Shown here: piece after piece, positions 3,674 through 62,080 of the stretch | Numbering within the stretch: the stretch's first letter is position 1 | Layout of the letters: the number at the start of each line of letters is the position of its first letter | NCBI GenBank assembly: GCA_032372955.1 | Contig: GCA_032372955.1_4725.1 | Direction: 5' to 3' (one strand) | Source: Escherichia coli | GTDB lineage: Bacteria > Pseudomonadota > Gammaproteobacteria > Enterobacterales > Enterobacteriaceae | Length of the DNA: 64,000 nt | The notes under the pieces: model-generated | Told to the model about the DNA's origin: nothing | What the model saw: the letters and a program-made list of their open reading frames with translations, nothing else | Database searches by the model: none | Translations under genes and position numbers: made by a program

Positions 3674-3709
3674 CCCACCCTACCGCCCTTAACGGGGTAG
3701 TAGGGTGGG
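3674..3709. terminator. nested GC-rich hairpin at a convergent gene junction (likely bidirectional intrinsic terminator)
   Basis: 10-bp outer stem cccaccctac/gtagggtggg enclosing inner ccc-ttaac-ggg; T-rich tract ttattatgttatttttt follows on plus strand. Confidence 0.6.
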
Positions 3710-3717
3710 TTATTATG

Positions 3718-10762: not shown

Positions 10763-10817
10763 AGCCTACCCACCATTGTGTGGGTAGGCTTTATGCCGTA
10801 TTTCTTTTTTCTTTTTC
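10763..10817 (+). terminator. rho-independent terminator
   Basis: 11-bp stem agcctacccac/gtgggtaggct, loop cattgt, then T-rich tract ttatgccgtatttcttttttctttttc. Confidence 0.65.
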
Positions 10818-10828
10818 AGGAGGACGTG

Positions 10829-11896
10829 ATGAGTCTTTACGACAAACTGCCGAGTATAGATACGTCCAAGATCAAAACCATCACCAGCGATTTTTCGACA
10901 GGGCGTGATACGCTCCTTAAAGCGGTTAGCGGTACTGCTGTTTCAGCGGCGGATGCGTTAACCAGTTTTCGTAGCAGTATTACGAACAGTATCAATAGTA
11001 CATTATCGGCGTTAACAGGAAACCTGATTTCCATAAGCGATCTTAATTCTTTCATCGATATCAGCGGAGGCAAAATCTCCCTGAATGAAAACGCGTTGAT
11101 GAATAAGATCAAAGATGTTACTGGCCTGAATATATCGTCAACCGATAACATCCTATCGCAAGTAAAAGACCAGATTTACAGCACCATTAACCAGCAATCC
11201 AATGGTGCGTTAGGGAAGCTTATCGATAAAGATGGAAATGTTAAGCTTCTCGATAGTCTGATGTCTGGCGATGAGTATTATAAACTGTCGACGATTGTTG
11301 ATCGGTATCTCGAGGATCAAGGGAAAACGCGAACCGAATTCAGCTACAACGACTATAAGACGAACCGGACGGTTGTCACATCGTTGATTCGTCAAGCCGC
11401 ATTAGCGGGCAACTATATCGACGTACGTAGTCTGTATGACTCTGGGTCAGCGGAGGATAAAGTGGCGATGGCAACCACTTTAGCGGAATCGTTAAGCAGC
11501 GTTGGCCTTAACGGCGATTTCCGTACAGCTGCCGTTATCACCGAACTCATTACGGCTGAACGTGCCCGTAGCGTTGTCCCTGAACTTATTACGTTACTAT
11601 TTCGTAACTACCGTATCCCATCGTACCTTACCCTTAAAGAATACGACGCTGAAGCCTCGCGTTTAATTGATTTTGCCGACGCGTTTAAACCCGGATGGGG
11701 TAAAACGAACTATCACGGTAAGGATGCAGAACTCCTCACGATGTGGATGGAAACATCCAGTGGGTTTTATTCCCTTTTCTCCCGCAGTAGGAAATACGCA
11801 TCTCTTGCTGTGATGGGTAAGAATTATACAACTACCATCACGATGGCAGGCTTGAAGAAACTTTATCCTGATTTACCGACGGTGACGTTAGGTTAA
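10829..11896 (+). CDS. hypothetical protein
   Basis: ATG 10829 with AGGAGG SD; ORF-track start 10778 lies inside the terminator T-tract. Confidence 0.7.
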   Translation: MSLYDKLPSIDTSKIKTITSDFSTGRDTLLKAVSGTAVSAADALTSFRSSITNSINSTLSALTGNLISISDLNSFIDISGGKISLNENALMNKIKDVTGLNISSTDNILSQVKDQIYSTINQQSNGALGKLIDKDGNVKLLDSLMSGDEYYKLSTIVDRYLEDQGKTRTEFSYNDYKTNRTVVTSLIRQAALAGNYIDVRSLYDSGSAEDKVAMATTLAESLSSVGLNGDFRTAAVITELITAERARSVVPELITLLFRNYRIPSYLTLKEYDAEASRLIDFADAFKPGWGKTNYHGKDAELLTMWMETSSGFYSLFSRSRKYASLAVMGKNYTTTITMAGLKKLYPDLPTVTLG

Positions 11897-11902
11897 CATA
11901 AT

Positions 11903-11934
11903 CCCTCTCCCAACCCGTAAGGGAAGGGAGAGGG
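11903..11934. terminator. nested GC-rich hairpin at a convergent gene junction
   Basis: ccctctccc-aa-ccc-gtaa-ggg-aa-gggagaggg; 9-bp outer stem, 3-bp inner stem, GNRA-type loop. Confidence 0.6.
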
Positions 11935-11951
11935 GGTTTATGCAGTGAATA

Positions 11952-14093
11952 TCAGAACGGTCGTTCTGTGCGTTTCCATAACAGCCCTGATGCTATCCTG
12001 CCAGGCATGGTGTCAGACAACCAGCTAGCAAAATTACCTTTGCTCCAGAAACTATCGATATCAGCCATGGTTTTATGCATGCGACGACTTAAATCAGGAA
12101 TCATGTAAACTTGTTCCGTAAGTGTCAATGCCGATAATACAGCAAGATAGTTGTTGAGCGGAGTATCGTCAGCAAGAAGATCGCTTAAGAAGCCACGAGG
12201 ATCCAATTTTGCGATCGATGCGGCCGTCGTTGTGATCGGCATTGCGACGATGGACGACAGGTCATAAACACTGAAGCTGACGTCGATACCCAACGGTAAT
12301 CGCTCGCGTGTTGATGGCACGTTCCCAACATGACGCGTCACAGTGATGTTATCGATAAGACCCATTTTAATCTGGACTTTACCGGGAATATAACACTCAC
12401 ACATGAATGGCATCCCGTAGGACGATTTACCGGTAGCCTGAGGCAAACCACCTGCGAGGATCGCTAAAAGAGGTACCATGAGGTTCGTAAAGATCGACCA
12501 GCGGTCCCCACTCCAGGAACGCAATTCCATCGTCAGATCGGCACGCGGTAGACTTACTGACGACCCAGAATAGAATTTCGGAATGTCTGCGAAGCCGGAA
12601 CCCATGAAGGCACCAAAAATACCATCCAGACCCATTCCGGAAATAGCACCATTAACGAGATCGGAACCGGCTTTGATGGCTTCGTCCAGTACAGCCCAAC
12701 CTGTATTACCACCGGAGAGGGTGAAACGACGTTCGATGTTCGCTTGCGCGCGGCTGTTCATCGTCTGTGCGATAGAACTTTCTGAAGCACTGTTTGAAAA
12801 CGTTTCGGTTACACTGGTGACAGAATCGACTCGAAAACTGATAAACTGAGCACCGTCAGCCAATTCAGCATCCATCAGATCAAGAAACGTAGCTTCTTCG
12901 GCCGCGTTCGTTTGACCGATTCCTTTGCTCTGTACGTTCGCGCCTCCAGCCGTGGATGCCGCTGTTGAAGCTTGTGTTGTCCCCGACGTTGAATTACCGA
13001 CATTGGCTGTTGTACCCTGACTCTGTGTTGACGTACCGCCGTCGGAGGTAGCCGCTGAGACATTGAAGTTGGCATCGGCATCTTTATTGGTGTACGAGGC
13101 CCTTCCGAATAAAAGGTCGTCCATCGTTTGTTTATTATCACCAGCTGTCGCACTGTAAACAGCAGACTTCTGTGTGTCGGCGAGATACTGCGTTAGCGTA
13201 CGACCGGTTACATCCGATGGAAACGCTCCGCTATCAAGTCGTTTATCAAGATCGTTCCAGAACTCCTCGTAAGACGAGTAATCGTTTTCCATCATGGATT
13301 GAATACGGCGTACCCATGCGTTTTGTATACGCTGACGACGTGTTGCAATCTGGTAGATATCGATCCCACCACCTTTCTTATAAATCCCCGGTAGCGTCTT
13401 AGAGGCGTAGTTGATGAATTCTTCAACGTTCTGACCACCGATTGAATATTGGTGGAGTACGGTACCCCCTTCTTCCACGTATCCTTTATCTTTACCAGCA
13501 CCGGCGATAAGACCCATGTTTATCGCTGTTTGGTTTACCAGCGTCTGGAAAGACGCCCAATACACGTGCATGGTTGGTACTTGATAGTAATATTGACTGG
13601 TAGGCTTACCCAGGAAATATCGACCAATACGTCCAACCATATACAAGTAAGGTAGAGGTGTGAGGTAAGAAAGAACGGTGGTATACGCTTTGGCTGCGTA
13701 ATAAAGAATACCGGGATCGCGACCGGTTTTAACCGTTACGGCGACATCGGCGTCGTAGAAATCGGTAAAGAAGATACTTGCGCCTGTAAAGCGAGGTTTA
13801 CCGAATCGTAAGGTAACGACTTCTTTAAAGCTGTTGATGCTTTCACTATAGCCTCGGCCCATGCCCGTTGATCCCGGCATAACCGCACGTCGCCGTTCTT
13901 TGATGTCGGCAAATTTCGTATATTGCGGTGGTGGGTTAAGCACCCAGTTCCCACCTAAGGTGGTATCATCGACGTTATCGTAGGAATACGGTGTATGTCT
14001 CGCTTTAATCATGTCGGCACTCAGCGTGCTGCTATCGCCTGGTAATAAAAACGCTTGTTTGGTAATTAGGGCGTTTTGAACAAGAATACCCAT
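11952..14093 (-). CDS. hypothetical protein, 713 aa, with central Ser/Thr/Gly-rich linker (possible virion protein)
   Basis: ATG with GAGGA SD (minus); immediately downstream of the giant lysozyme-domain gene on the same strand. Confidence 0.75.
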   Translation of the reverse strand: MGILVQNALITKQAFLLPGDSSTLSADMIKARHTPYSYDNVDDTTLGGNWVLNPPPQYTKFADIKERRRAVMPGSTGMGRGYSESINSFKEVVTLRFGKPRFTGASIFFTDFYDADVAVTVKTGRDPGILYYAAKAYTTVLSYLTPLPYLYMVGRIGRYFLGKPTSQYYYQVPTMHVYWASFQTLVNQTAINMGLIAGAGKDKGYVEEGGTVLHQYSIGGQNVEEFINYASKTLPGIYKKGGGIDIYQIATRRQRIQNAWVRRIQSMMENDYSSYEEFWNDLDKRLDSGAFPSDVTGRTLTQYLADTQKSAVYSATAGDNKQTMDDLLFGRASYTNKDADANFNVSAATSDGGTSTQSQGTTANVGNSTSGTTQASTAASTAGGANVQSKGIGQTNAAEEATFLDLMDAELADGAQFISFRVDSVTSVTETFSNSASESSIAQTMNSRAQANIERRFTLSGGNTGWAVLDEAIKAGSDLVNGAISGMGLDGIFGAFMGSGFADIPKFYSGSSVSLPRADLTMELRSWSGDRWSIFTNLMVPLLAILAGGLPQATGKSSYGMPFMCECYIPGKVQIKMGLIDNITVTRHVGNVPSTRERLPLGIDVSFSVYDLSSIVAMPITTTAASIAKLDPRGFLSDLLADDTPLNNYLAVLSALTLTEQVYMIPDLSRRMHKTMADIDSFWSKGNFASWLSDTMPGRIASGLLWKRTERPF

Positions 14094-14110: not shown

Positions 14111-14133
14111 GAGGGCGGGAATCTCCCGCCCTT
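14111..14133 (-). promoter_or_regulatory. intercistronic hairpin between giant gene and downstream gene
   Basis: gagggcggga-atc-tcccgccctt, 9 to 10 bp stem, 3-nt loop; sits between stop at 14143 and next RBS. Confidence 0.35.
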
Positions 14134-22520: not shown

Positions 22521-23002
22521 AAGTCCTTGAAAAATAAAGACTTTTTTCAATGGAAGTTGTCCGGTATTCCCGAAAGGGAGTGCTTGAAAAACCTACGAAT
22601 TGCTGGGAACCCCTAAAGCTCAACGACCCATGAGGTGCCGAAAGGCAGAAACAACAGTTGAGATGCACTACCTCCCACGGAGGCTTAGGCTGAAAGAAAA
22701 GCCGCGTAAGCGGTGCTAAGGTGCGCGATAATGGGCAATCAGCAGCCTGGTTGTTGCGTAGTAATACGGCATTCTTGAAAACAAGAATGTGAAACAACGC
22801 AGGTTCAACGACTAAGGGATTTACCACCCTGTAGAGGACAAGCGTCTTCGAAGTGTAGGTTACCGTAACAGGTGTTGCTGAAGTATTCTTCAGCGAAGCT
22901 GACGGTTTGATATAGTCTCCTCTTGCATGAAAGTGCAAGCAGCCTGTGATGTACGTATCCATGCAGGCGGTCTCAGCGTAGCGACCTGAGGCGAAGACAA
23001 GG
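22521..23002 (+). ncRNA. group I intron 1 (in beta-prime gene), 482 nt, no internal ORF
   Basis: P AATTGCTGGGAA 22598-22609; Q CAATCAGCAGCC 22736-22747; R GTTCAACGACTAAGGG 22803-22818; S GATATAGTC 22909-22917 (GACTA/TAGTC forms P7); GNRA hairpins; exon ends in U, intron ends in G; boundaries inferred, about +/-10 nt. Confidence 0.7.
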
Positions 23003-26100: not shown

Positions 26101-26392
26101 CCCGATGCTGGATATCAAGCAGGGTGAAGAAGCAACGATGACCGGTATCGGGGGTCGTTCAAAGACATCGCTTCGACGCGCACGTGATCGCGAATACGAC
26201 AAGTCGGACATTGGTGTTGTATCCGAAGGTACGAAGGATAGTGGGGACGTAGGTATTTCTGCTTACCTCGCACCTAACGCAAACATTGTGTCTGTATACG
26301 GTGAAACGAAACCTTACGACGAGAAAACGGATGGTAGCTCGTCAATAATGAGTACATCAGCACTTGCAGTACCTGCTGCTGATAGAGATGAT
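23186..26392 (+). CDS. multisubunit RNA polymerase beta fragment, exon 1
   Basis: ATG with GGAG SD; C-terminal part has beta-like TGIGGRSKTSLRRARDREYD ... VVSEGTKDSGDVGISAYLAPNANI; about 500 aa N-terminal extension; in-frame TAA at 26393 is proposed to be intronic. Confidence 0.75.
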
Positions 26393-26874
26393 TAACGCTT
26401 TTAATAGCAGGGTCCGTCTATGTGGCGACATGTAGATGAGATTCACTGAATTGCGAAGACATCCGTCGCTGTTATCGACCAAAACGGATTCTGAAAAGAA
26501 AGACGGTACGGTATAAAAACAGATAATAGCTTAAGGACAATCCGCAGCCAAGTACCTAAGGATCGCTGTGAAGCGTTCTAAGGTAAAGGTTCAACGACTA
26601 AGGGATTCATCCCCCTGTACCCCTCGAGTGAGGCATTCTCCTTGGATAAGAGAATGGTGCTGGATGCGCTGGGAAGAAGTGAACTCTCGTTGAGGTGCTG
26701 AAGAAGCACCGTTTGAAACGAGATGTGATATAGTCTGCTCTTGCGTGAGAGCGCAAGCGGGAGGTGGTGCGCCTATCATCGCCTCCGGGATAAGACTAAC
26801 GACCTTATCTGAACAATCTAATCTCAGTCTTATTTCGGTAACGGTATGTTAATACTGAATAAGAACTAAATTCG
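26393..26874 (+). ncRNA. group I intron 2 (in beta gene), 482 nt, no internal ORF
   Basis: P GAATTGCGAAGA 26448-26459; Q CAATCCGCAGCC 26538-26549; R GTTCAACGACTAAGGG 26589-26604; S GATATAGTC 26727-26735; 3' hairpin TAAGACTAACGACCTTATCTGAAC; 5' splice site uncertain within 26365-26393. Confidence 0.65.
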
Positions 26875-28014
26875 CCCAAGAGATTGGTATTTATAGGTAT
26901 CCAACACAACCGCATGATTGCTGCTGAAGGTTACGATGTACAGCCGTGGCGTACGGGTGGTGAGACTGTTATCGCGCATCGTGTTGGTAAGCTCTTCGCA
27001 GCAGCTGCCCAAGGCGATGGTGTTGTGAAGAAGGTCACTAAAACTGCGCTGACGATACAGTACGACGACCCAGAGTTAGGGGAAGAGGTTTTCCAGCTCG
27101 GTACGATAATCGGGAAAGGACCAGGTAAGTATTATCCTCACGATCTCATTACCGATTATAAAGTCGGGGATCGCGTTAAGGATCAGGATGTGGTGGTTTT
27201 CCACCGCCTTTATTTTAAACGCGATTGGTGGAACCCAGGTCAGGTTGTTTGGCGCGCAGGTGTTCTGTCTCTTGTCGGTATTCTGGATATTCCAGAGACC
27301 CACGAGGACAGCTCGTATATCTTCGACAATCTTGCTGATCGTCTCGTAACACCATCGATTAAGAGTCGTACGCTTATCGTTGACGCTCATCTCAACATTC
27401 GTGGTCTCGTGAAAATCGGTGATCATGTTGAACCGCGAACGATTCTTGCAACACTGGAAGAACCGATTGCAACCGATCTGAGTGATGAGAGTCAGGAAGC
27501 CGTTGAAGCATTACGTCGTATGAGTCAGTATAACCCACGTGCTGATGTTCATGGTGAAGTTGTACAGATCGATGTACTGTACCGCGCTCAGATTGAAGAC
27601 ATGAGTGAAACCATGGCAGCGCTCGTCGGTGAGGCAGATAAAGCACGAGCTAAACGCGTCAAGGAACTGAAACTCAACGAAGCAACAACGGGGCGTATCA
27701 ATAACAGTAACGTGAGAATAGACGGTAATCCGTTAGGCGAGAACCAGATCGCCATCCGTATTTTCATGCGTTACGACCTTGGTGCGGGGATGGGTGATAA
27801 AGGTACCTTCGCAGCTCAAGCGAAATCCGTTGTCTCTTCCGTGGGTCATGGTGTGAACAAAACCGAAGACGGGCACACCCTTGATGCTATCTTCAGTGGC
27901 ACCAGTATCGCTAACCGTATCATCGGTTCACCGGAAGTGGTTGGGACTGTGAATCTTGGTCTCCTCTACGCAACGGAACGAGCTGTTGATATTTACTTTA
28001 ACGACGCTAAATAA
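26875..28014 (+). CDS. RNA polymerase beta fragment, exon 2
   Basis: Begins PKRLVFIGIQHNRM (fork-loop-like) and contains GDKGTFAAQAKSVV ... EDGHTLDAIFSGTSIANRIIGSPE (beta GDK...GNKG / SRMN-like region); only a TTG with no usable SD in this frame, so independent translation is unlikely. Confidence 0.7.
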   Translation, partial: PKRLVFIGIQHNRMIAAEGYDVQPWRTGGETVIAHRVGKLFAAAAQGDGVVKKVTKTALTIQYDDPELGEEVFQLGTIIGKGPGKYYPHDLITDYKVGDRVKDQDVVVFHRLYFKRDWWNPGQVVWRAGVLSLVGILDIPETHEDSSYIFDNLADRLVTPSIKSRTLIVDAHLNIRGLVKIGDHVEPRTILATLEEPIATDLSDESQEAVEALRRMSQYNPRADVHGEVVQIDVLYRAQIEDMSETMAALVGEADKARAKRVKELKLNEATTGRINNSNVRIDGNPLGENQIAIRIFMRYDLGAGMGDKGTFAAQAKSVVSSVGHGVNKTEDGHTLDAIFSGTSIANRIIGSPEVVGTVNLGLLYATERAVDIYFNDAK

Positions 28015-32206: not shown

Positions 32207-32359
32207 AAAAGATGTTACGTTATATTGTGTACGGAAGTAATCGTTACCGTATTTAGGTGGTTTAGCTCAACTTACATCCTTTTTGTTATCTTTGATGCCT
32301 GCTACCAGGGCCGTTATGGACACCGCGTCACATAACGTCCTTTCGTCGTGATGGACGAA

Positions 32360-32395
32360 CCTCCTTACCCATGTGGGTAAGGAGGTACTTTTTAT
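32360..32395 (+). terminator. rho-independent terminator
   Basis: 11-bp stem cctccttaccc/gggtaaggagg, loop atgt, then tactttttatg. Confidence 0.55.
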
Positions 32396-32489
32396 GCCGT
32401 CATTTTGATGTAAGATCTTACCAGAACTCATTATTCTACGGATACATACGCCGTATATGAACTTTATTGTTAAGTAGGAATTTAAAAAG

Positions 32490-33425: not shown

Positions 33426-33905
33426 ATGTCTGAAGCTGTAGAAACCACCGTAGCGACTGAAACCACTTCTAACGTACGTCCGGAAGTTCAGGCTCTTTCT
33501 GATAAAATCGCCGCTGGTATTAAACTGGACGAATCTGGTAGCCAGAAGCTAGGCAGTGATTTCCTGGGTACTCTGGTAACACCGGAAGAAAAAGAAATCC
33601 TGGAAAAAGCACAGAAACTGACCACGGATATCGGTCTGGCTCACGGTCTGGCGGTTGGCCGCGTTGGCGCGCAGTTCATGGCGGATAACAAACAGGTTGA
33701 CGTTGTTTCTGTAACCCTGCCGCTGGGCAAAGACGTTGTGTCTGCAACGGTTCAACGTAGCGCTGAAGTTGGTTTCGGCTCTAACGAGAAGAAACAGGTT
33801 TACGGACGCCTGACCACCGCGTATAAGAAATCTTTCCCAACAACTCAGGTTAAGCATATTCGCGACAACATCAGTGCGTATGCAGCTGAGCTGCTGAAAG
33901 ACTGA
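33426..33905 (+). CDS. small, highly expressed hypothetical protein (159 aa)
   Basis: ATG with GGAG SD; very strong codon bias; own promoter motif upstream and terminator downstream. Confidence 0.75.
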   Translation: MSEAVETTVATETTSNVRPEVQALSDKIAAGIKLDESGSQKLGSDFLGTLVTPEEKEILEKAQKLTTDIGLAHGLAVGRVGAQFMADNKQVDVVSVTLPLGKDVVSATVQRSAEVGFGSNEKKQVYGRLTTAYKKSFPTTQVKHIRDNISAYAAELLKD

Positions 33906-33933
33906 TTGTAACCTAACACGTCTCTCTGTATGA

Positions 33934-33990
33934 CCCCACCGTAGCCCTGTATGGGGTTGCGGTGGCGGTTATGTCAAGGTTTTATTTTTA
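33934..33990 (+). terminator. rho-independent terminator (nested hairpin plus U-tract)
   Basis: ccccaccg-ta-g-ccc-tgtat-ggg-g-ttg-cggtggcgg followed by ttatgtcaaggttttattttta. Confidence 0.55.
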
Positions 33991-34961: not shown

Positions 34962-34973
34962 ATAAACCATAAA

Positions 34974-35010
34974 CCTTCCTTCCCCGGCCTTGACGGCTAG
35001 GGAAGGAAGG
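34974..35010. terminator. nested GC-rich hairpin at a convergent gene junction
   Basis: ccttccttccc-cg-gcc-ttgac-ggc-tag-gggaaggaagg; T-rich sequence on both flanks. Confidence 0.55.
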
Positions 35011-35035
35011 GAGGTTAATATGCTTTTTTTTTACG

Positions 35036-43451: not shown

Positions 43452-43466
43452 ATCGGAGGAGTTTAT

Positions 43467-45698
43467 ATGTCGATTGTCGATCCGAAGAAAATCATCCTGT
43501 TTGAGGAAGATTGGGATTATTTTCCTCAGGCTGTCCCACACTGGGAAACAACAAACACAAGTTGGCGTGATTTAGCGATCTTGTATCGCCGTGAATTCGG
43601 TGTCCGAAACTCTGCGTTTTTCATGGCGTTATTAAACCCAAGATTAATCGGTGTTGATCCCCACGCACCGAATTTGACGTCAGAACAGATTCAGATGATC
43701 AGTGCGGAATGCTATCTTAATCCATGGTACTTCTTCCGTGAAGTGATGCGTGTTCCGGCTAAAGCGGGTGATAACAAAATCTCATTCCGTGCTAACCGCG
43801 GTAACATTCCGATGCTCTGGGGGATATTTACCCGAACGAACTGGTATCAGATACAGATACGTCAGACGGGTAAATCCATGACCATGTTAGGGTTGTTCTG
43901 TTATCTAACCTATGTTCGTAGTCGAAACACCGAGGTTATTCAGTTAACAAAAGACGGTGATGCCCGCACGAAAACGGTAGAAGACGTGCGTAGTATACGC
44001 GATCTGCTGCCTGCATATCTCTGGACGCTGGATAGTCGCGATTCATCGAACAAAGAGAACGTGACCTACACGCGTTTCAAGAACAAGCTATCGGTAAAGA
44101 TTCCACGTTCGGATAAGAAACAAGCAACAAACATCGGTCGTGGTCTAACAACCCCGCTATTCCATAGCGACGAAACCGCGTTTACGAAATACATCGAAAT
44201 CATTGTTCCTGCTGGTATCGGTGCGATGGGTGCGGCACGCGATGAAGCATTAAGCAACGGTGACCTGACGAGTATCATCTACACGACAACGGCAGGTGAA
44301 TTGGATAAACGCGAAGGCAAATGGGCTTATGAAGTTTTCATGCGTTCCGCGCCGTTCTCTGAAAGTTTCTTTGACTGCCGTAACGAAAAGCATCTGCACC
44401 AGACGGTATTGAACAACGTACCGTGCGAGCTCAGCAAAGCGACCGTCAGGATCGGGGCACAATGGAACCATGCTCAGCTGGGCTTCAGTGACGAATGGTT
44501 AGCAAAAACCATGAACGAAACGGAAGGTGATAAACTTCAGAAAGACCGCGACTACATGAACATTTGGACCAACGGTTCAGCAGAAAGCCCGTTAACCGCC
44601 GAGATGGTTGAGATGATCATGGCAGGACAACGTGAAATCGACCATATCGAGATCTCACCTGAAGGCTACTGCATTAACTGGTATATACCCCGAGGTAAAA
44701 TCGAGACATACATGCAGAACAACAAGGTGGTTGCTGGTTTAGATACCAGTGACGCGATAGGTCGTGATGCTATCGGTTTGGTGATGGTGGATGTGGAAAC
44801 AGCAGAAGTTGTTGCGACAGGACGTTTTAATAAACTGAGCCTGCTTTCTTTTGCTCGTTGGATGGCCAACTTCATGATGCGTTTTAAGAACGTCACGTTG
44901 ATTCCTGAACGTAAAAGCAGTGCAATCATGCTGTTAGACGCAATTGAAGAGTTCTTGCGGCAAGCAGGCATCGACGTGTTCAAACGTGTATACAACACGA
45001 TTGTGGACAGACATGCTGATAACCCAGCGATGTTCGAAGACCTGAAATTACCATTAAGCATGCGTGATGAAAGTTGGTACGCTCAACGTAAACGGCACTT
45101 GGGTTTCACAACGGATGCACGCAAACGTATGGAGTTGTATTCCGACATCTTGATGGAAGGTATTGTAGAAACCCGCGGGCAGTTACGCGATAAGATGCTG
45201 TGTTCAGAGATTCTTGGGTTGGTTATTAAAGATGGGCGTGTTGACCACCAGGACGGAATGCACGACGACATGACGTTCGCATGGATGTTAGCGATGTGGT
45301 TCATCAAGCGCGCTAAGAAACAGATTCATTACGGTATCGATCCACTTAAAGTCATGAGTCGTTTACCGGCATCTGTGACGGGTGAAATCGATCCGTATGA
45401 AGCTTATCTTAACCAACAGCAAGCGAAGCTACGTCAACGCGTTGCTGAAATCTATGAGTTGCTTAAGACCGAAACCAACGGCCTTATCTTGGATCGATTG
45501 GAGGCAGAGCTTCTTACCTATAAAGGAAAAATACGCGGGGAGGATTCAGCGTCTGTCTCTATCGACGCGATGATTACGAAAGCGAGGGAGGAACGAGCGA
45601 ATACGTATCGTCAAATAAGTCGCTCTTCGAACGAACGGAATATTTCTCGTAATGCGTGGATGACGATGGGTCAATACCGACCAGGGGGTTTTTTCTAA
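43467..45698 (+). CDS. terL: terminase large subunit
   Basis: P-loop-like IQIRQTGKSM, Walker B-like PLFHSDETAF, and nuclease-domain acidic motifs (VAGLDTSDAIGRDAIG ... HQDGMHDDMTFAWMLAMWF); 743 aa. Confidence 0.7.
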   Translation: MSIVDPKKIILFEEDWDYFPQAVPHWETTNTSWRDLAILYRREFGVRNSAFFMALLNPRLIGVDPHAPNLTSEQIQMISAECYLNPWYFFREVMRVPAKAGDNKISFRANRGNIPMLWGIFTRTNWYQIQIRQTGKSMTMLGLFCYLTYVRSRNTEVIQLTKDGDARTKTVEDVRSIRDLLPAYLWTLDSRDSSNKENVTYTRFKNKLSVKIPRSDKKQATNIGRGLTTPLFHSDETAFTKYIEIIVPAGIGAMGAARDEALSNGDLTSIIYTTTAGELDKREGKWAYEVFMRSAPFSESFFDCRNEKHLHQTVLNNVPCELSKATVRIGAQWNHAQLGFSDEWLAKTMNETEGDKLQKDRDYMNIWTNGSAESPLTAEMVEMIMAGQREIDHIEISPEGYCINWYIPRGKIETYMQNNKVVAGLDTSDAIGRDAIGLVMVDVETAEVVATGRFNKLSLLSFARWMANFMMRFKNVTLIPERKSSAIMLLDAIEEFLRQAGIDVFKRVYNTIVDRHADNPAMFEDLKLPLSMRDESWYAQRKRHLGFTTDARKRMELYSDILMEGIVETRGQLRDKMLCSEILGLVIKDGRVDHQDGMHDDMTFAWMLAMWFIKRAKKQIHYGIDPLKVMSRLPASVTGEIDPYEAYLNQQQAKLRQRVAEIYELLKTETNGLILDRLEAELLTYKGKIRGEDSASVSIDAMITKAREERANTYRQISRSSNERNISRNAWMTMGQYRPGGFF

Positions 45699-46092: not shown

Positions 46093-46104
46093 GGCAAACA
46101 TAGT

Positions 46105-46133
46105 CCTCCTCTGGGTTCCATTCCCAGAGGAGG
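46105..46133. terminator. GC-rich hairpin at a convergent gene junction
   Basis: Perfect 11-bp stem cctcctctggg/cccagaggagg with loop ttccatt. Confidence 0.5.
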
Positions 46134-46285
46134 CTATGAGGCCTGAGCATTTTTGGTCTGTCGAGCACTGTGAGAGAACGACAGTTAACCAGGAGAGGAC
46201 AAACGACTTAAAGGGATGGTACTCCTGGGTGAAGCCCTATGCTTCAAATAATAACCAACGTCAGTAAAGTTTTACCGTTACGTTG

Positions 46286-51665: not shown

Positions 51666-51965
51666 ATGACGACGAAGAAGAAAGTAATGCCGAAGGCTGC
51701 GCATGGTATCTACGAATTGTGGTTATTGGATAAACACGGCTATAAGGTCTTAACGAAAGAAGAAGGACGTCATGTTAAAGCAGGACTCATGGTACTACAA
51801 GGTGAGTTGTTGCTAGATAATGGCACGTTGTTTCTGAATGGAAGGAAAATTGCTGTAAAACAAGGACGTCGATATGAGATTTGTTATCCGTTGCGTCCAG
51901 GTGCGATGAAGAATGCGCTTTACGCAAGTATGCGTGCTGCGATGAAACGGGAAGGGTTGTTATGA
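51666..51965 (+). CDS. hypothetical protein
   Basis: ATG with strong AAGGAGG SD; 99 aa. Confidence 0.65.
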   Translation: MTTKKKVMPKAAHGIYELWLLDKHGYKVLTKEEGRHVKAGLMVLQGELLLDNGTLFLNGRKIAVKQGRRYEICYPLRPGAMKNALYASMRAAMKREGLL

Positions 51966-52498
51966 TGAGTGAGAAACCGCAAGTAAAGCTATATAAATCC
52001 GGCTATACGACAATAGAATACATTGAAGGGATTCACAAAAAGAAAGGTGCGGCGTATGTGCTGCATTATTCCAAACATCACGATACGCTATTTGCTTTTA
52101 CCGTAGTAAATATGCGAAATGTGAGTAGTAATGATATCGAACGTTGGTTAAATATCCATCCGACCGATGATCGTGTTCAATTTATCGTTACGCCATGTGT
52201 TGCGTTTTCTGGTAACGCCTATCGTTTTATGGATAGCGAAGACGGCGAATTATTTCTACGTTTGTATATCACCGACATTGCGAAGACAAGATCGACACCA
52301 TCATTGATCGTTGATGAGACAAAGACGCAATACGGTATTCAGTTCGATTGTTTACCGGACGATCTCATTTTCAGTAATAAGCTATCAACCTCGGCCTGTA
52401 TTATTGCTGCTGAATTTGCGAACGTGCTGAAAGTGTTTAAACGGCAAATACCTCCCTCGAAAACACCGAGGGAGGAAGCTGTTGTTAATCAGAAGTAA
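51962..52498 (+). CDS. hypothetical protein
   Basis: ATG 51962 in ATGA overlap; ORF-track start 51881 overlaps the upstream gene. Confidence 0.6.
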   Translation: MMSEKPQVKLYKSGYTTIEYIEGIHKKKGAAYVLHYSKHHDTLFAFTVVNMRNVSSNDIERWLNIHPTDDRVQFIVTPCVAFSGNAYRFMDSEDGELFLRLYITDIAKTRSTPSLIVDETKTQYGIQFDCLPDDLIFSNKLSTSACIIAAEFANVLKVFKRQIPPSKTPREEAVVNQK

Positions 52499-53331
52499 CC
52501 GGTTTGTAGTCGAATGGCGCGACGTTTAGTTTGTGGATCGTTCCAGGCAGCAACGCCAGCCCACGTTTCGTTCAGGAATTCCTGATATGTGTTTTCAGCA
52601 TCAGCAAAGCGATCGATGTATTCCTTGAATGCACCGACTTCTTGTCCTTGTGCTGTAACACCTCTGTCAAGACGGATAACGGTTCTGTTGTAGATGTCAC
52701 TTTGCGTGGCGTATAAACAGAGTTTGTAGAAATCGTTCCAAACCTCCATGCTGAGGTTGGTAAGTTCCGGATCGTGGGCAAGGAAACAGCGTAGGCTCAG
52801 GGGAAATTGTACAGGCGTGACGTTGTTCACCATGATGGTGTTAGGCGCGATGATATCAACGTTGGCTGTACTAAGAACGTTCATGGGACCGAACGCGTTC
52901 ATCCCTTGCTGTAACGTGTTGCTTGCGGGGTTCCACCCACAAAGCTGACGTTGAAATTGGGTTTGGTTGAAAGCGCCCCATTGCCCGTTATAGTTTATTC
53001 CGTAGTTGTTCACGCTCCCTGAAATAATGGATAATGCGGACGTGATGTAACGTCCCTGCGTGGCTTCCAACGGAATGTGGAAAACATAACAGTTAATGGT
53101 GACTTCTTCGATAGTGACACCGGCATCATCAAGGGGGATAACGGTTTGTAGTCCCCCGTAGATATCGATGTCGCCGATAACCCGTTTACGGATTACCCAA
53201 TCGGTAATGATGTCTTCTACGGAACGAGGATAGCGATTACGCCAGTCGTAGCGATCGATATAGCAATACTGTAGGATATCTGCCGGTATTGTACGACAGA
53301 TACGATCTACACTGTAGTCAATAGCACCCAT
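52489..53331 (-). CDS. hypothetical protein
   Basis: ATG with AGGGGTGA SD (minus); 280 aa; 10-nt convergent overlap with 51962..52498. Confidence 0.65.
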   Translation of the reverse strand: MGAIDYSVDRICRTIPADILQYCYIDRYDWRNRYPRSVEDIITDWVIRKRVIGDIDIYGGLQTVIPLDDAGVTIEEVTINCYVFHIPLEATQGRYITSALSIISGSVNNYGINYNGQWGAFNQTQFQRQLCGWNPASNTLQQGMNAFGPMNVLSTANVDIIAPNTIMVNNVTPVQFPLSLRCFLAHDPELTNLSMEVWNDFYKLCLYATQSDIYNRTVIRLDRGVTAQGQEVGAFKEYIDRFADAENTYQEFLNETWAGVAAWNDPQTKRRAIRLQTGYF

Positions 53332-58466: not shown

Positions 58467-58664
58467 ACTTTTACATACAGTACTATATATTTTGAGTGGT
58501 TAGTGCCATCAGTGAAATAAGATAGATTCGTGTTTTTTATTCCTTCTTTGGCGAATCGCCTCTCGTGTTACAACCTCCCTCTGATCTAGCATCATTGTGC
58601 ACGAGAGAAGATCTTGTTTCACGAACATCATCGATATCTTTCTGTCAGTTATTATCCTTTTTAA

Positions 58665-58698
58665 CCGATCTGGCTTCGGCTGGATCGGTTCTTTTTTA
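58665..58698 (+). terminator. rho-independent terminator with UUCG tetraloop
   Basis: ccgatctggc-ttcg-gctggatcgg (10 bp, two G-U) followed by ttctttttta. Confidence 0.7.
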
Positions 58699-58765
58699 TG
58701 CCGTCCTTCTTTTTTAACAGATATACGAGATGATGTAGACAGACTAAATAACTTTTGGAGGATTT

Positions 58766-60919: not shown

Positions 60920-60934
60920 CATAATCCACCACCC

Positions 60935-60966
60935 CATCCTCCCTTCCCTTACGGGTTGGGAGGATG
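60935..60966. terminator. nested GC-rich hairpin at a convergent gene junction
   Basis: catcctccc-tt-ccc-ttac-ggg-tt-gggaggatg; inner part is the reverse complement of the 11903 hairpin core. Confidence 0.55.
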
Positions 60967-60985
60967 CAAGGGAAGAGGGAGGTGA

Positions 60986-62080
60986 TTATGCACCAGCAGG
61001 AAGAATTTTTAAGAGGTCGGCAACCTGTGCAATAACTTCACGTCTTAAATCGCCAGGTAACGGAGAGGATTCCCAGTTACCTTCTTTTAGACTCCGGTCG
61101 GCAGCACGGTACAGGTCATTATCGATTTGACTGCTGAACCCGACGCTTTCAGATACGTTTTGCAATGTGACGAGTTGTTGCCATAATGACAGACAACCCA
61201 GATCCCTTGCCCATCTCGTTTGTCGAAGATCGACGGTGTAGCCCATTCGGGTTGCTTGGTACTGATCCCCGTATAAACTCGGTATCTGTTTAAGCATGTC
61301 GGTGTAGCTTCGTCTTCTGCGTAATAAATGATGCTGTACAGACAGAACGACTTGACTGAATACGTTATCCAGGTCGTTAACGTAAATTGGTGATTTGAGT
61401 GGATTCTTAGCCGGAGATACCCATAAACAACGATTGCGTATAACAACATCGTTGTGTGAGTATAATGCGTTAACCAACGGAAAACTCGCAAGAAAGCTTG
61501 TAACCGGTTCTTTAACCACCCATTTACCGTCGTCGTTATGACCCATGACCAAAGACCACATTCGATACTGTAGCGCTAATAAAGGTACATCAACCATAAT
61601 GACCGCAAAACCTCGTCCTTCTTCAACCTGCTTTTGGTGAAGAGGAATGTAACGAAGATTTGCGTATGGGTGCGTCACGATTCTAACTGGTGACCAATTA
61701 CGCCAGTTGTCAAGAATGTCACGTGAAATAAGACGACTTTCACCGGTTGCGATAATAGCTTCGTGCAATCCTGGATAGAAAGCACCGTCGAATAACTTAC
61801 CCGCGTATCTTGATGTTGTCAACTTGACACGATTACCCAATTCTGGGGTAAGATCGAGAATCATGTCGTAGTAAGTTTGTACTGAGATGTCGTATCTCAT
61901 AGGGAGCTGTGCAAGCAGCAACGCAAGGATGTGATCGCTCTGAACCGCGAAGGTAAAACCCTGATAGTGGTTCTGGATTGTCTGTAGGTTTCTTTGAACT
62001 TCGCGTATTAGATAGTCTTTCTGAGGGACGGGTTGCACACCCGATGATGTTCGCGGGAGGTTATTTAAAACACGAAACAT
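60986..62080 (-). CDS. hypothetical protein
   Basis: 364 aa; ATG with GGAG SD (minus). Confidence 0.7.
   Translation of the reverse strand: MFRVLNNLPRTSSGVQPVPQKDYLIREVQRNLQTIQNHYQGFTFAVQSDHILALLLAQLPMRYDISVQTYYDMILDLTPELGNRVKLTTSRYAGKLFDGAFYPGLHEAIIATGESRLISRDILDNWRNWSPVRIVTHPYANLRYIPLHQKQVEEGRGFAVIMVDVPLLALQYRMWSLVMGHNDDGKWVVKEPVTSFLASFPLVNALYSHNDVVIRNRCLWVSPAKNPLKSPIYVNDLDNVFSQVVLSVQHHLLRRRRSYTDMLKQIPSLYGDQYQATRMGYTVDLRQTRWARDLGCLSLWQQLVTLQNVSESVGFSSQIDNDLYRAADRSLKEGNWESSPLPGDLRREVIAQVADLLKILPAGA

Follow-up and report, generated by a model that had tools for sequence, protein, structure and literature searches.

The hairpins that mark convergent gene junctions in the window (the whole 64,000-nucleotide stretch of DNA analyzed here) are best explained as factor-independent terminators for the phage's own multisubunit RNA polymerases, which would work in both directions where two genes converge. 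We put the probability of this reading at roughly 85%. It is built on direct observation of the anatomy of the elements, their departure from chance, the strand logic of their flanks, and their match to a published terminator motif. The class itself has already been described, and the novelty is limited to the compound form of the hairpin, the rapid inversions of its core, and the overlap of its tail with a promoter tetranucleotide.

The genome is that of a Goslar-like nucleus-forming jumbo phage

The entire window is colinear with positions 236317–171233 of Escherichia phage vB_EcoM_Goslar, on the opposite strand, at ~97% identity (96.7–97%). When a 4-kb stretch around 11903 was searched against the phage collection, Goslar was the sole match (96.7% identity), and a search of E. 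coli genomes with the region returned no match. The Goslar record (Goslarvirus, Chimalliviridae) lists several split RNA polymerase beta-like genes, a nuclear shell protein, and the tubulin PhuZ, and the genes beside the junctions discussed here encode phage structural or unknown proteins and a divergent family B DNA polymerase.

In IMG/VR, only Goslar and two other genomes are ~97% identical to the window. Strains were compared among the window, Goslar, and IMG/VR contigs 3300045988 and 3300011560, all 96–98% identical, and the complete Goslar record was assembled for genome-wide counts. Beyond the Goslar-like genomes, the next relative of the DNA polymerase in the collections searched is ~36% identical; these collections contain no intermediate relatives for orthologous covariation.

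Two further features of the genome were observed. Over the whole window, matches to sigma-70-like promoters fell below the numbers in shuffles (23 vs 27, 14 vs 31, and 19 vs 28), which is consistent with a phage that is independent of the host polymerase. The RNA polymerase beta-subunit gene region carries polymorphic group I introns (window 22523–22939 and 26361–26885). Intron 1 (Rfam 22535–22939) is without the 1.57-kb stretch that holds the HNH-type gp206 ORF in Goslar, and the second intron (26391–26757), which Goslar lacks, interrupts the gp207 homologue and leaves it as two ORFs (1069 and 376 aa).

Anatomy of the hairpins

The ORF map contains seven convergent junctions. Two of these are overlapping gene ends, and the five that are intergenic all carry a hairpin (3674, 11903, 34974, 46105, and 60935), exactly as the original prediction had it. 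Its further statement that four of the five enclose an inner stem-loop is also correct: the elements at 3674, 11903, 34974, and 60935 are nested, and the one at 46105 is a plain 11-bp stem. The related element that it placed after gene 33426 (at 33934) is present as well. The features are as follows.

11903–11934, both strands: putative nested bidirectional terminator hairpin; outer stem 11903–11911 / 11926–11934, A·A 2 × 2 loop 11912–13 / 11924–25, CCC 11914–16 / GGG 11921–23, GTAA 11917–20
11897–11902, minus strand: CATAAT, which reads ATTATG on the minus strand; putative tail for the minus-strand gene 11952–14093
11937–11942, plus strand: TTTATG, putative tail serving the plus-strand gene that ends at 11896; matches phiKZ YTTATKYYGT
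60920–60990, both strands: putative bidirectional terminator between the DNA polymerase gene (plus) and gene 60986–62080 (minus); CATAAT 60920–25, nested core 60935–60966, extended outer pairing, ATTATG 60985–90
3674–3717, both strands: nested hairpin 3674–3709 with core CG-CCC-TTAAC(G)-GGG-TA; TTATTATG at 3710–3717
34968–35022, both strands: nested hairpin 34974–35010 with CATAAA before it and core CG-GCC-TTGAC-GGC-TA; tail ends in TATG 35019–35022
46099–46138, both strands: putative non-nested bidirectional terminator; simple 11-bp hairpin 46105–46133 with a 7-nt loop, CATAG before and CTATG after
33929–33973, plus strand: putative unidirectional terminator after gene 33426–33905; long hairpin with G-U pairs, then TTATG 33969–33973
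10763–10799, plus strand: putative unidirectional terminator; simple hairpin 10763–10790, then TTATGCCGT
32359–32401, plus strand: putative unidirectional terminator; 12-bp hairpin 32359–32386, TTATGCCGTC at 32392–32401, loop inverted relative to Goslar
58663–58705, plus strand: putative unidirectional terminator upstream of the DNA polymerase gene; hairpin 58663–58690, TTATGCCGTC from 58696

The element at 11903–11934 reads CCCTCTCCC-AA-CCC-GTAA-GGG-AA-GGGAGAGGG, and that at 60935–60966 reads CATCCTCCC-TT-CCC-TTAC-GGG-TT-GGGAGGATG. The 14-nt core of the latter is the exact reverse complement of the core at 11903, so that the predicted sharing of the inner sequence in opposite orientation holds to the letter. 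In each nested element, the interior is 14–16 nt long and consists of a 2 × 2 internal loop, a 3-bp stem, and a 4–5 nt loop; the co-directional members, like 46105, have simple loops. The outer stems pair a pyrimidine-rich 5' arm with a purine-rich 3' arm (CCCTCTCCC/GGGAGAGGG, CATCCTCCC/GGGAGGATG, CCTTCCTTCCC/GGGAAGGAAGG, and CCTCCTCTGGG/CCCAGAGGAGG).

The predicted RNA folds are strong on both strands. The minimum free energy of the 11903 element is −28.4 (plus) and −30.1 (minus) kcal/mol (z = −5.6 and −6.2), and the region 11897–11902 pairs with 11937–11942 in read-through RNA, where the predicted fold extends the helix via CAUAA/UUAUG. The element at 60920–60990 folds at −37.6 and −39.0 kcal/mol, and the one at 46105 at −29.3 and −28.4 kcal/mol. 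The 34974 element, which sits between a 179-aa gene (plus) and the tail tube gene (minus), folds at −31.3 kcal/mol on each strand. In all five convergent elements, the two strands are within 2 kcal/mol of each other.

The Goslar record already carries the annotation "putative transcriptional terminator" for three window hairpins, namely 3674 (counterpart at Goslar 232609–232644), 28015, and 58663 (counterpart at 176545–176568); the 11903 and 60935 elements are not among them. Two other hairpins were seen in the window. At 52451–52475, a 9-bp pyrimidine-arm hairpin lies within the 3' end of the plus-strand gene 51881–52498 and just past the stop of the overlapping minus-strand gene 52489–53331, with the minus-strand tail TATTTGCCGT; this hairpin is probably a terminator that lies within coding DNA. 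The hairpin at 14112–14132 (AGGGCGGGA-ATC-TCCCGCCCT), between two minus-strand genes, falls outside the family motif because its 5' arm is purine-rich and TTATG stands on neither side.

The hairpins are far from chance

Dinucleotide shuffles of the window were used as the reference. There are 15 perfect stems of at least 9 bp in the window compared with 1.9 ± 1.1 in 60 shuffles (maximum 5), and 15 hairpin flanks followed by TTAT[GT] compared with 1.7 ± 1.2, again in 60 shuffles. The nested architecture was counted seven times (four junction elements with the unpaired internal loop, two continuous perfect stems, and one intragenic case) compared with 0.15 per shuffle in 100 shuffles (maximum 2). 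Fold z-scores range from −3.7 to −6.5 on both strands, and no shuffle was as stable. These results exclude chance as the source of the hairpins.

The same picture was found in the complete Goslar genome. A hairpin with a pyrimidine arm and a purine arm is present at 16 of 16 non-overlapping convergent junctions, and 33 of the 40 perfect stems of at least 9 bp are intergenic, although intergenic DNA makes up 7.6% of the genome. The genome-wide search for the nested pattern that had been proposed returned 20 nested elements, 15 with an AA/AA (or flipped TT/TT) step around CCC-NNNN-GGG and five with a TA/CG step around SCC-NNNNN-GGS. A MAFFT alignment of paralogous nested elements misaligned the members with 5-nt loops, and a covariation count would have been circular because the set had been chosen for perfect stems; shuffles and strand-asymmetry tests were used instead.

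Within IMG/VR, the exact 18-mer CCAACCCGTAAGGGAAGG occurs only in Goslar, two other Goslar-like contigs, and three unrelated places. An element reading CCCCC-AACCCGTAAGGGAA-GGGGG was observed at 1960–1990 of IMGVR_UViG_3300020577_003345, a 43.5-kb unrelated phage, where it has the A-rich flank AAAAAGAAA and the T-rich flank CTTTTCTTTATT and lies between a plus-strand ORF that ends at 1954 and a 1699-aa minus-strand ORF that ends at 2004. The same inner module thus appears in a classic bidirectional terminator of another virus.

Flanks, tails, and strand logic

On each strand, the layout is a hairpin, 0–10 nt, and then (T)TATG, with CATAA to the left of the element and TTATG to its right. The tail is present on nine of the ten flanks at the five convergent junctions in the window, the exception being the minus side of 3674, where TTTATTTG stands without TATG. 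It had been pointed out that 11903 and 60935 both follow TAACATAATCC after the stop codon. Both are indeed preceded by it, and it begins with the TAA stop codon itself; the rest is the reverse complement of the opposite-strand tail ATTATG (ATTATGTTA), and there is no separate signal. After each of the co-directional simple hairpins at 10763, 32359, and 58663, TTATGCCGT(C/A) follows on the transcribed strand only.

TATG stands within 12 nt downstream of the hairpin on 22 of 30 convergent flanks in Goslar, compared with an intergenic background of 4.4% (p = 5e-24). At co-directional sites, TATG is found on 15 of 29 sense flanks and on 3 of 29 antisense flanks (Fisher p = 0.0014). Over 39 Goslar flanks, the tail has the anchored consensus (T)TATG(C/T)(C/T)G(T), the same as in phiKZ. 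Conversely, 19 of the 26 intergenic TTATGYYG sites in Goslar directly follow a hairpin of −15 kcal/mol or stronger, a stability reached by 2.5% of random 45-mers.

The fold energies follow the direction of transcription as well. For Goslar co-directional hairpins with TATG, the sense RNA has the more stable fold in 19 cases and the antisense RNA in 3 (mean 2.3 kcal/mol, p = 0.0015), and in the window, the element after gene 33426 folds at −32.8 kcal/mol in the sense and −18.7 kcal/mol in the antisense RNA. This asymmetry arises because G-U pairs turn into A-C mismatches on the other strand. The convergent hairpins in Goslar are symmetric, with a mean absolute strand difference of 1.3 kcal/mol. 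A structure that works as RNA, on one strand at a single gene end and on both where genes meet, would be expected to show this pattern. The earlier proposal of an element that can fold on both strands and so could terminate transcription both ways is, therefore, supported by the symmetric energies, by TTATG on the two strands, and by the match to motifs mapped at RNA 3' ends in phiKZ and 201phi2-1.

Could the palindromes act as DNA instead, as a cruciform or as a replication, recombination, or packaging site? The convergent copies are perfect Watson–Crick inverted repeats, and the frequent core inversions described below show that the arms interact as DNA during replication. However, the G-U pairs of the unidirectional members work only in RNA made from the transcribed strand. 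The elements are located at the 3' ends of genes, and in phiKZ, it is RNA 3' ends that the matching motif marks; we regard a DNA-level signal as extremely unlikely.

Proposed mechanism of termination

We infer that RNA 3' ends form at these sites in this phage, through a hairpin followed by a weak hybrid. The nascent transcript of either strand would fold into a GC-rich hairpin, its 5' arm rich in pyrimidines and its 3' arm in purines. In the Goslar-like compound version, this hairpin is predicted to have a 9–11 bp outer stem, a 2 × 2 unpaired step, a 3-bp SCC/GGS stem, and a 4–5 nt loop. The (U)UAUG after it would form a weak RNA–DNA hybrid, at which, by analogy with phiKZ, the polymerase would release the RNA. 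As a near-perfect palindrome between CATAA and TTATG, the element would encode the same signal on the opposite strand. In read-through or terminated RNA, CAUAA would pair with UUAUG and give a longer helix, which would be expected to shield the 3' end. Because the tail departs from a canonical U-tract, the termination reading draws on the analogy with phiKZ-type polymerases.

The tail has a second possible meaning. The late promoters of the phiKZ non-virion polymerase have TATG as their consensus, and transcription starts at its G; at these promoters, the beta-like subunit of the enzyme grips TATG on the non-template strand. Part of the TATG conservation could, therefore, reflect initiation rather than termination. 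Might each element be a stop–restart module, in which the TATG after the hairpin is a working non-virion polymerase promoter, so that one transcript ends and another begins at the G, with antisense RNAs running into the opposing gene at convergent junctions? In the Goslar annotation, 17–127 nt separate the co-directional TATG from the start codon that comes after it, a plausible length for a 5' UTR, and the conserved CCGT after the G is unneeded for a weak hybrid. On the other hand, TATG is necessary but not sufficient in phiKZ, the validated phiKZ promoter P119L, which we inspected, has no upstream hairpin, and TATG is kept on both sides of convergent junctions although no gene lies downstream. 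Initiation and termination are indistinguishable by sequence alone. We consider the stop–restart arrangement unlikely.

The two-sided TATG at convergent junctions, where no gene lies downstream, cannot be explained by promoters of coding genes; the tetranucleotide there either belongs to the stop signal or gives rise to antisense RNA. A variant of the termination reading joins the two roles: the polymerase might recognize the tail as it does a promoter, the resulting pause would give the hairpin time to form, and at co-directional sites, TATG might then restart transcription. We offer this only tentatively, as possible rather than probable. If true, it would shed light on the finding that TATG alone is "necessary but not sufficient" at promoters, and it would account for the conservation of the tail from Pseudomonas to E. 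coli phages even though a plain U-run would do.

The tail also coincides with annotated gene starts. The start codons of Goslar gp047 (49772), gp111 (117666), and gp183 (166924) are the ATG of a terminator TTATG (compare window 43456–43469), and at starts of this type, the purine-rich 3' arm serves as the Shine–Dalgarno sequence. These are either overlapping signals or mis-annotated starts.

A variable loop and a flipping core

The original prediction also held that the conserved inner loop suggests a specific function, such as a processing site or protein binding. This part is unsupported: the tetraloop is the most variable part of the element, and the core is inverted between near-identical genomes. 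No two of the four Goslar-like genomes have the same tetraloop at the 11903 site (GTAA, GTGA within a flipped core, AACA, and AGCA), whereas the stems and the A·A step are unchanged. The 14–15 nt core at this site is exactly reverse-complemented between Goslar and the window. The core is likewise inverted at 34974 in contig 3300011560 and at 60935 in contig 3300045988, and simple loops flip at 14112, 32359, and 43427; flips were thus found at 6 of 12 comparable window sites across the four genomes. More flips occur elsewhere in the Goslar genome (68, 4149, 48107, and 63715), and within the terminator hairpins of these ~97% identical genomes, flips outnumber point changes. Despite the frequent flips between strains, 17 of the 20 nested cores in Goslar share one orientation (on the plus strand of the record); this bias is weaker in the sister genomes.

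How could such inversions come about? Chloroplast "minute inversions" are comparable hairpin-loop inversions. In both settings, a segment between short inverted repeats is reverse-complemented and the stems are unchanged, as is also the outcome when replication switches templates between the arms of a hairpin and inverts the loop (PMC8794818). The Goslar-like flips differ from such template-switch inversions in that they exceed point changes, include a 14–15 nt structured core as well as simple loops, and are seen among phage genomes only ~3% apart.

What is conserved is the geometry, that is, the outer stem, the 2 × 2 internal loop, and the SCC/GGS inner stem. Could the inner stem-loop nevertheless be the recognition site of a processing nuclease or an RNA-binding protein, for example, a factor for mRNA export from the phage nucleus or for mRNA stability? 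The 2 × 2 loop and the SCC/GGS stem are invariant in ~20 Goslar copies, in contrast to the variable outer stems; one base pair of the inner stem differs on both sides with pairing retained (CCC/GGG vs GCC/GGC); and among the six chimalliviruses sampled, the nested form occurs only in Goslar-like genomes. However, four tetraloop variants occupy a single orthologous site in genomes that are 97% identical, and core inversion means that the RNA of a given strand shows different loop and internal-loop sequences between strains: the same transcript carries AA/GUAA in one strain and UU/UUAC in another. With inversions at half of the comparable sites, three of them nested, a strand-specific and sequence-specific reader of the loop is unlikely. 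The known RNA-binding protein associated with the nucleus, ChmC, has no defined motif and binds close to start codons, and its eCLIP data gave no link to 3' hairpins; the elements match no Rfam family either. Taken together, these observations make a dedicated recognition site rather improbable.

The hairpins also exchange whole sequences. At Goslar 93445–93476, contigs 3300045988 and 3300011560 carry the complete hairpin of another family member, exact in both arms and the loop (CCCTCCTCCAACCCGTAAGGGAAGGAGGAGGG), a swap that looks like gene conversion between terminators. This replacement, and the existence of several copies with common flanks and 32 nt of identical sequence, would fit a mobile or selfish palindromic repeat of the REP or MITE kind that spread to intergenic sites and has no dedicated role. 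Such a repeat is hard to reconcile with the occupancy of all 12 comparable window sites in the four genomes, where no presence/absence polymorphism was found. Moreover, the positions are ancient (every genus checked has a terminator at the junction of the polymerase and the gp52 homologue), the tail is oriented with transcription, and no target-site duplications or terminal repeats were seen beyond the functional flanks. We, therefore, judge a mobile origin of this kind highly improbable.

Significance

Nucleus-forming jumbo phages transcribe their genes within a protein shell, from which host factors such as Rho are presumably excluded. Transcription there would also be separate from translation, and the phage would have to rely on self-contained stop signals. 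A terminator at each non-overlapping convergent junction of a Goslar-like phage would extend the findings in phiKZ and 201phi2-1 to a widely used E. coli phage model, and the elements could serve as ready-made bidirectional terminator parts. Two points deserve note, namely that the terminator tail overlaps the late-promoter tetranucleotide and that the compound hairpin keeps its geometry while its core flips; neither changes the classification.

Comparison with known terminators

Bacterial bidirectional intrinsic terminators consist of a hairpin between convergent genes with an A-tract on one side and a U-tract on the other. The Goslar-like elements resemble them in that both strands use a single palindrome, whose upstream flank is complementary to the tail of the opposite strand. 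They differ in having the tail (T)TATG(C/T)(C/T)G with no U-run and in the polymerase, which here would be a non-canonical phage enzyme in the phage nucleus. A scan for canonical Rho-independent terminators (loops of 3–8 nt and at least 5 T in 8) did not report 3674, 11903, 34974, or 60935 on either strand; it did report 46105 (minus strand), 32359, 28015, and 58663. Rfam 15 holds no relevant family: the only gathering-level matches in the window were the two group I introns, and the best match over 11850–11990 in a permissive search reached 17.5 bits against a threshold of 67.

The closest parallel is phiKZ, in which long-read mapping of primary transcript ends revealed the motif BCCYCCCCHWWDGGGRRGGBYTTATKYYGT in 61 terminators, described as a hairpin followed by TTAT, and six bidirectional regions between convergent genes (Putzeys et al. 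2024, PMC10914365). We checked the phiKZ genome directly and found that its convergent junctions read GCATAA-GCCCTCCC-loop-GGGAGGGC-ATTATG, with the two-sided CATAA...TTATG layout seen here. The window elements share with phiKZ the pyrimidine 5' arm and purine 3' arm, the TTAT(G)YYGT tail on the transcribed strand, and the intergenic position at gene 3' ends and convergent junctions. The phiKZ hairpins, in contrast, are simple, with 7–10 bp stems and 4–6 nt loops, whereas the convergent Goslar-like ones are nested, and a simple 4-nt HWWD loop closing the stem is absent from four of the five convergent elements in the window. The RNA 3' ends have been mapped in phiKZ, while the putative Goslar-like terminators are known from their sequence; the literature searched contains no transcript-end study of Goslar or Goslar-like phages.

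In 201phi2-1, 132 termination sites have been mapped, including 15 bidirectional ones, and in vivo validation was obtained for eight terminators; one motif resembles that of phiKZ, and some composites of motifs A and B elongate the hairpin (PMC11512511). The Goslar-like elements thus share with this phage both the family-level motif and the occurrence of longer, composite hairpins, and they differ in the tail, which in 201phi2-1 is more often TTTATT(C/T) than TTATG.

Junctions in two Erwinia phages, Proteus phage 10, and 201phi2-1 have the form (ACGG)CATAA-hairpin-TTATG(CCGT) with unrelated stem sequences, and the junction that corresponds to window 60935, after the DNA polymerase gene, carries a hairpin and TTATG in Erwinia, Proteus, and Pseudomonas chimalliviruses. 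Shared flanks around unrelated stems indicate that the tail and layout are family-wide and that the stem sequence is lineage-specific. The nested pyrimidine-arm hairpin was absent from the 42–72 kb sampled in each of five other chimalliviruses (42 kb in the case of 201phi2-1). Among the six chimalliviruses sampled, the nested form is, therefore, confined to Goslar-like genomes, and the compound hairpin is best described as the putative Goslarvirus variant of a terminator motif common to the family.
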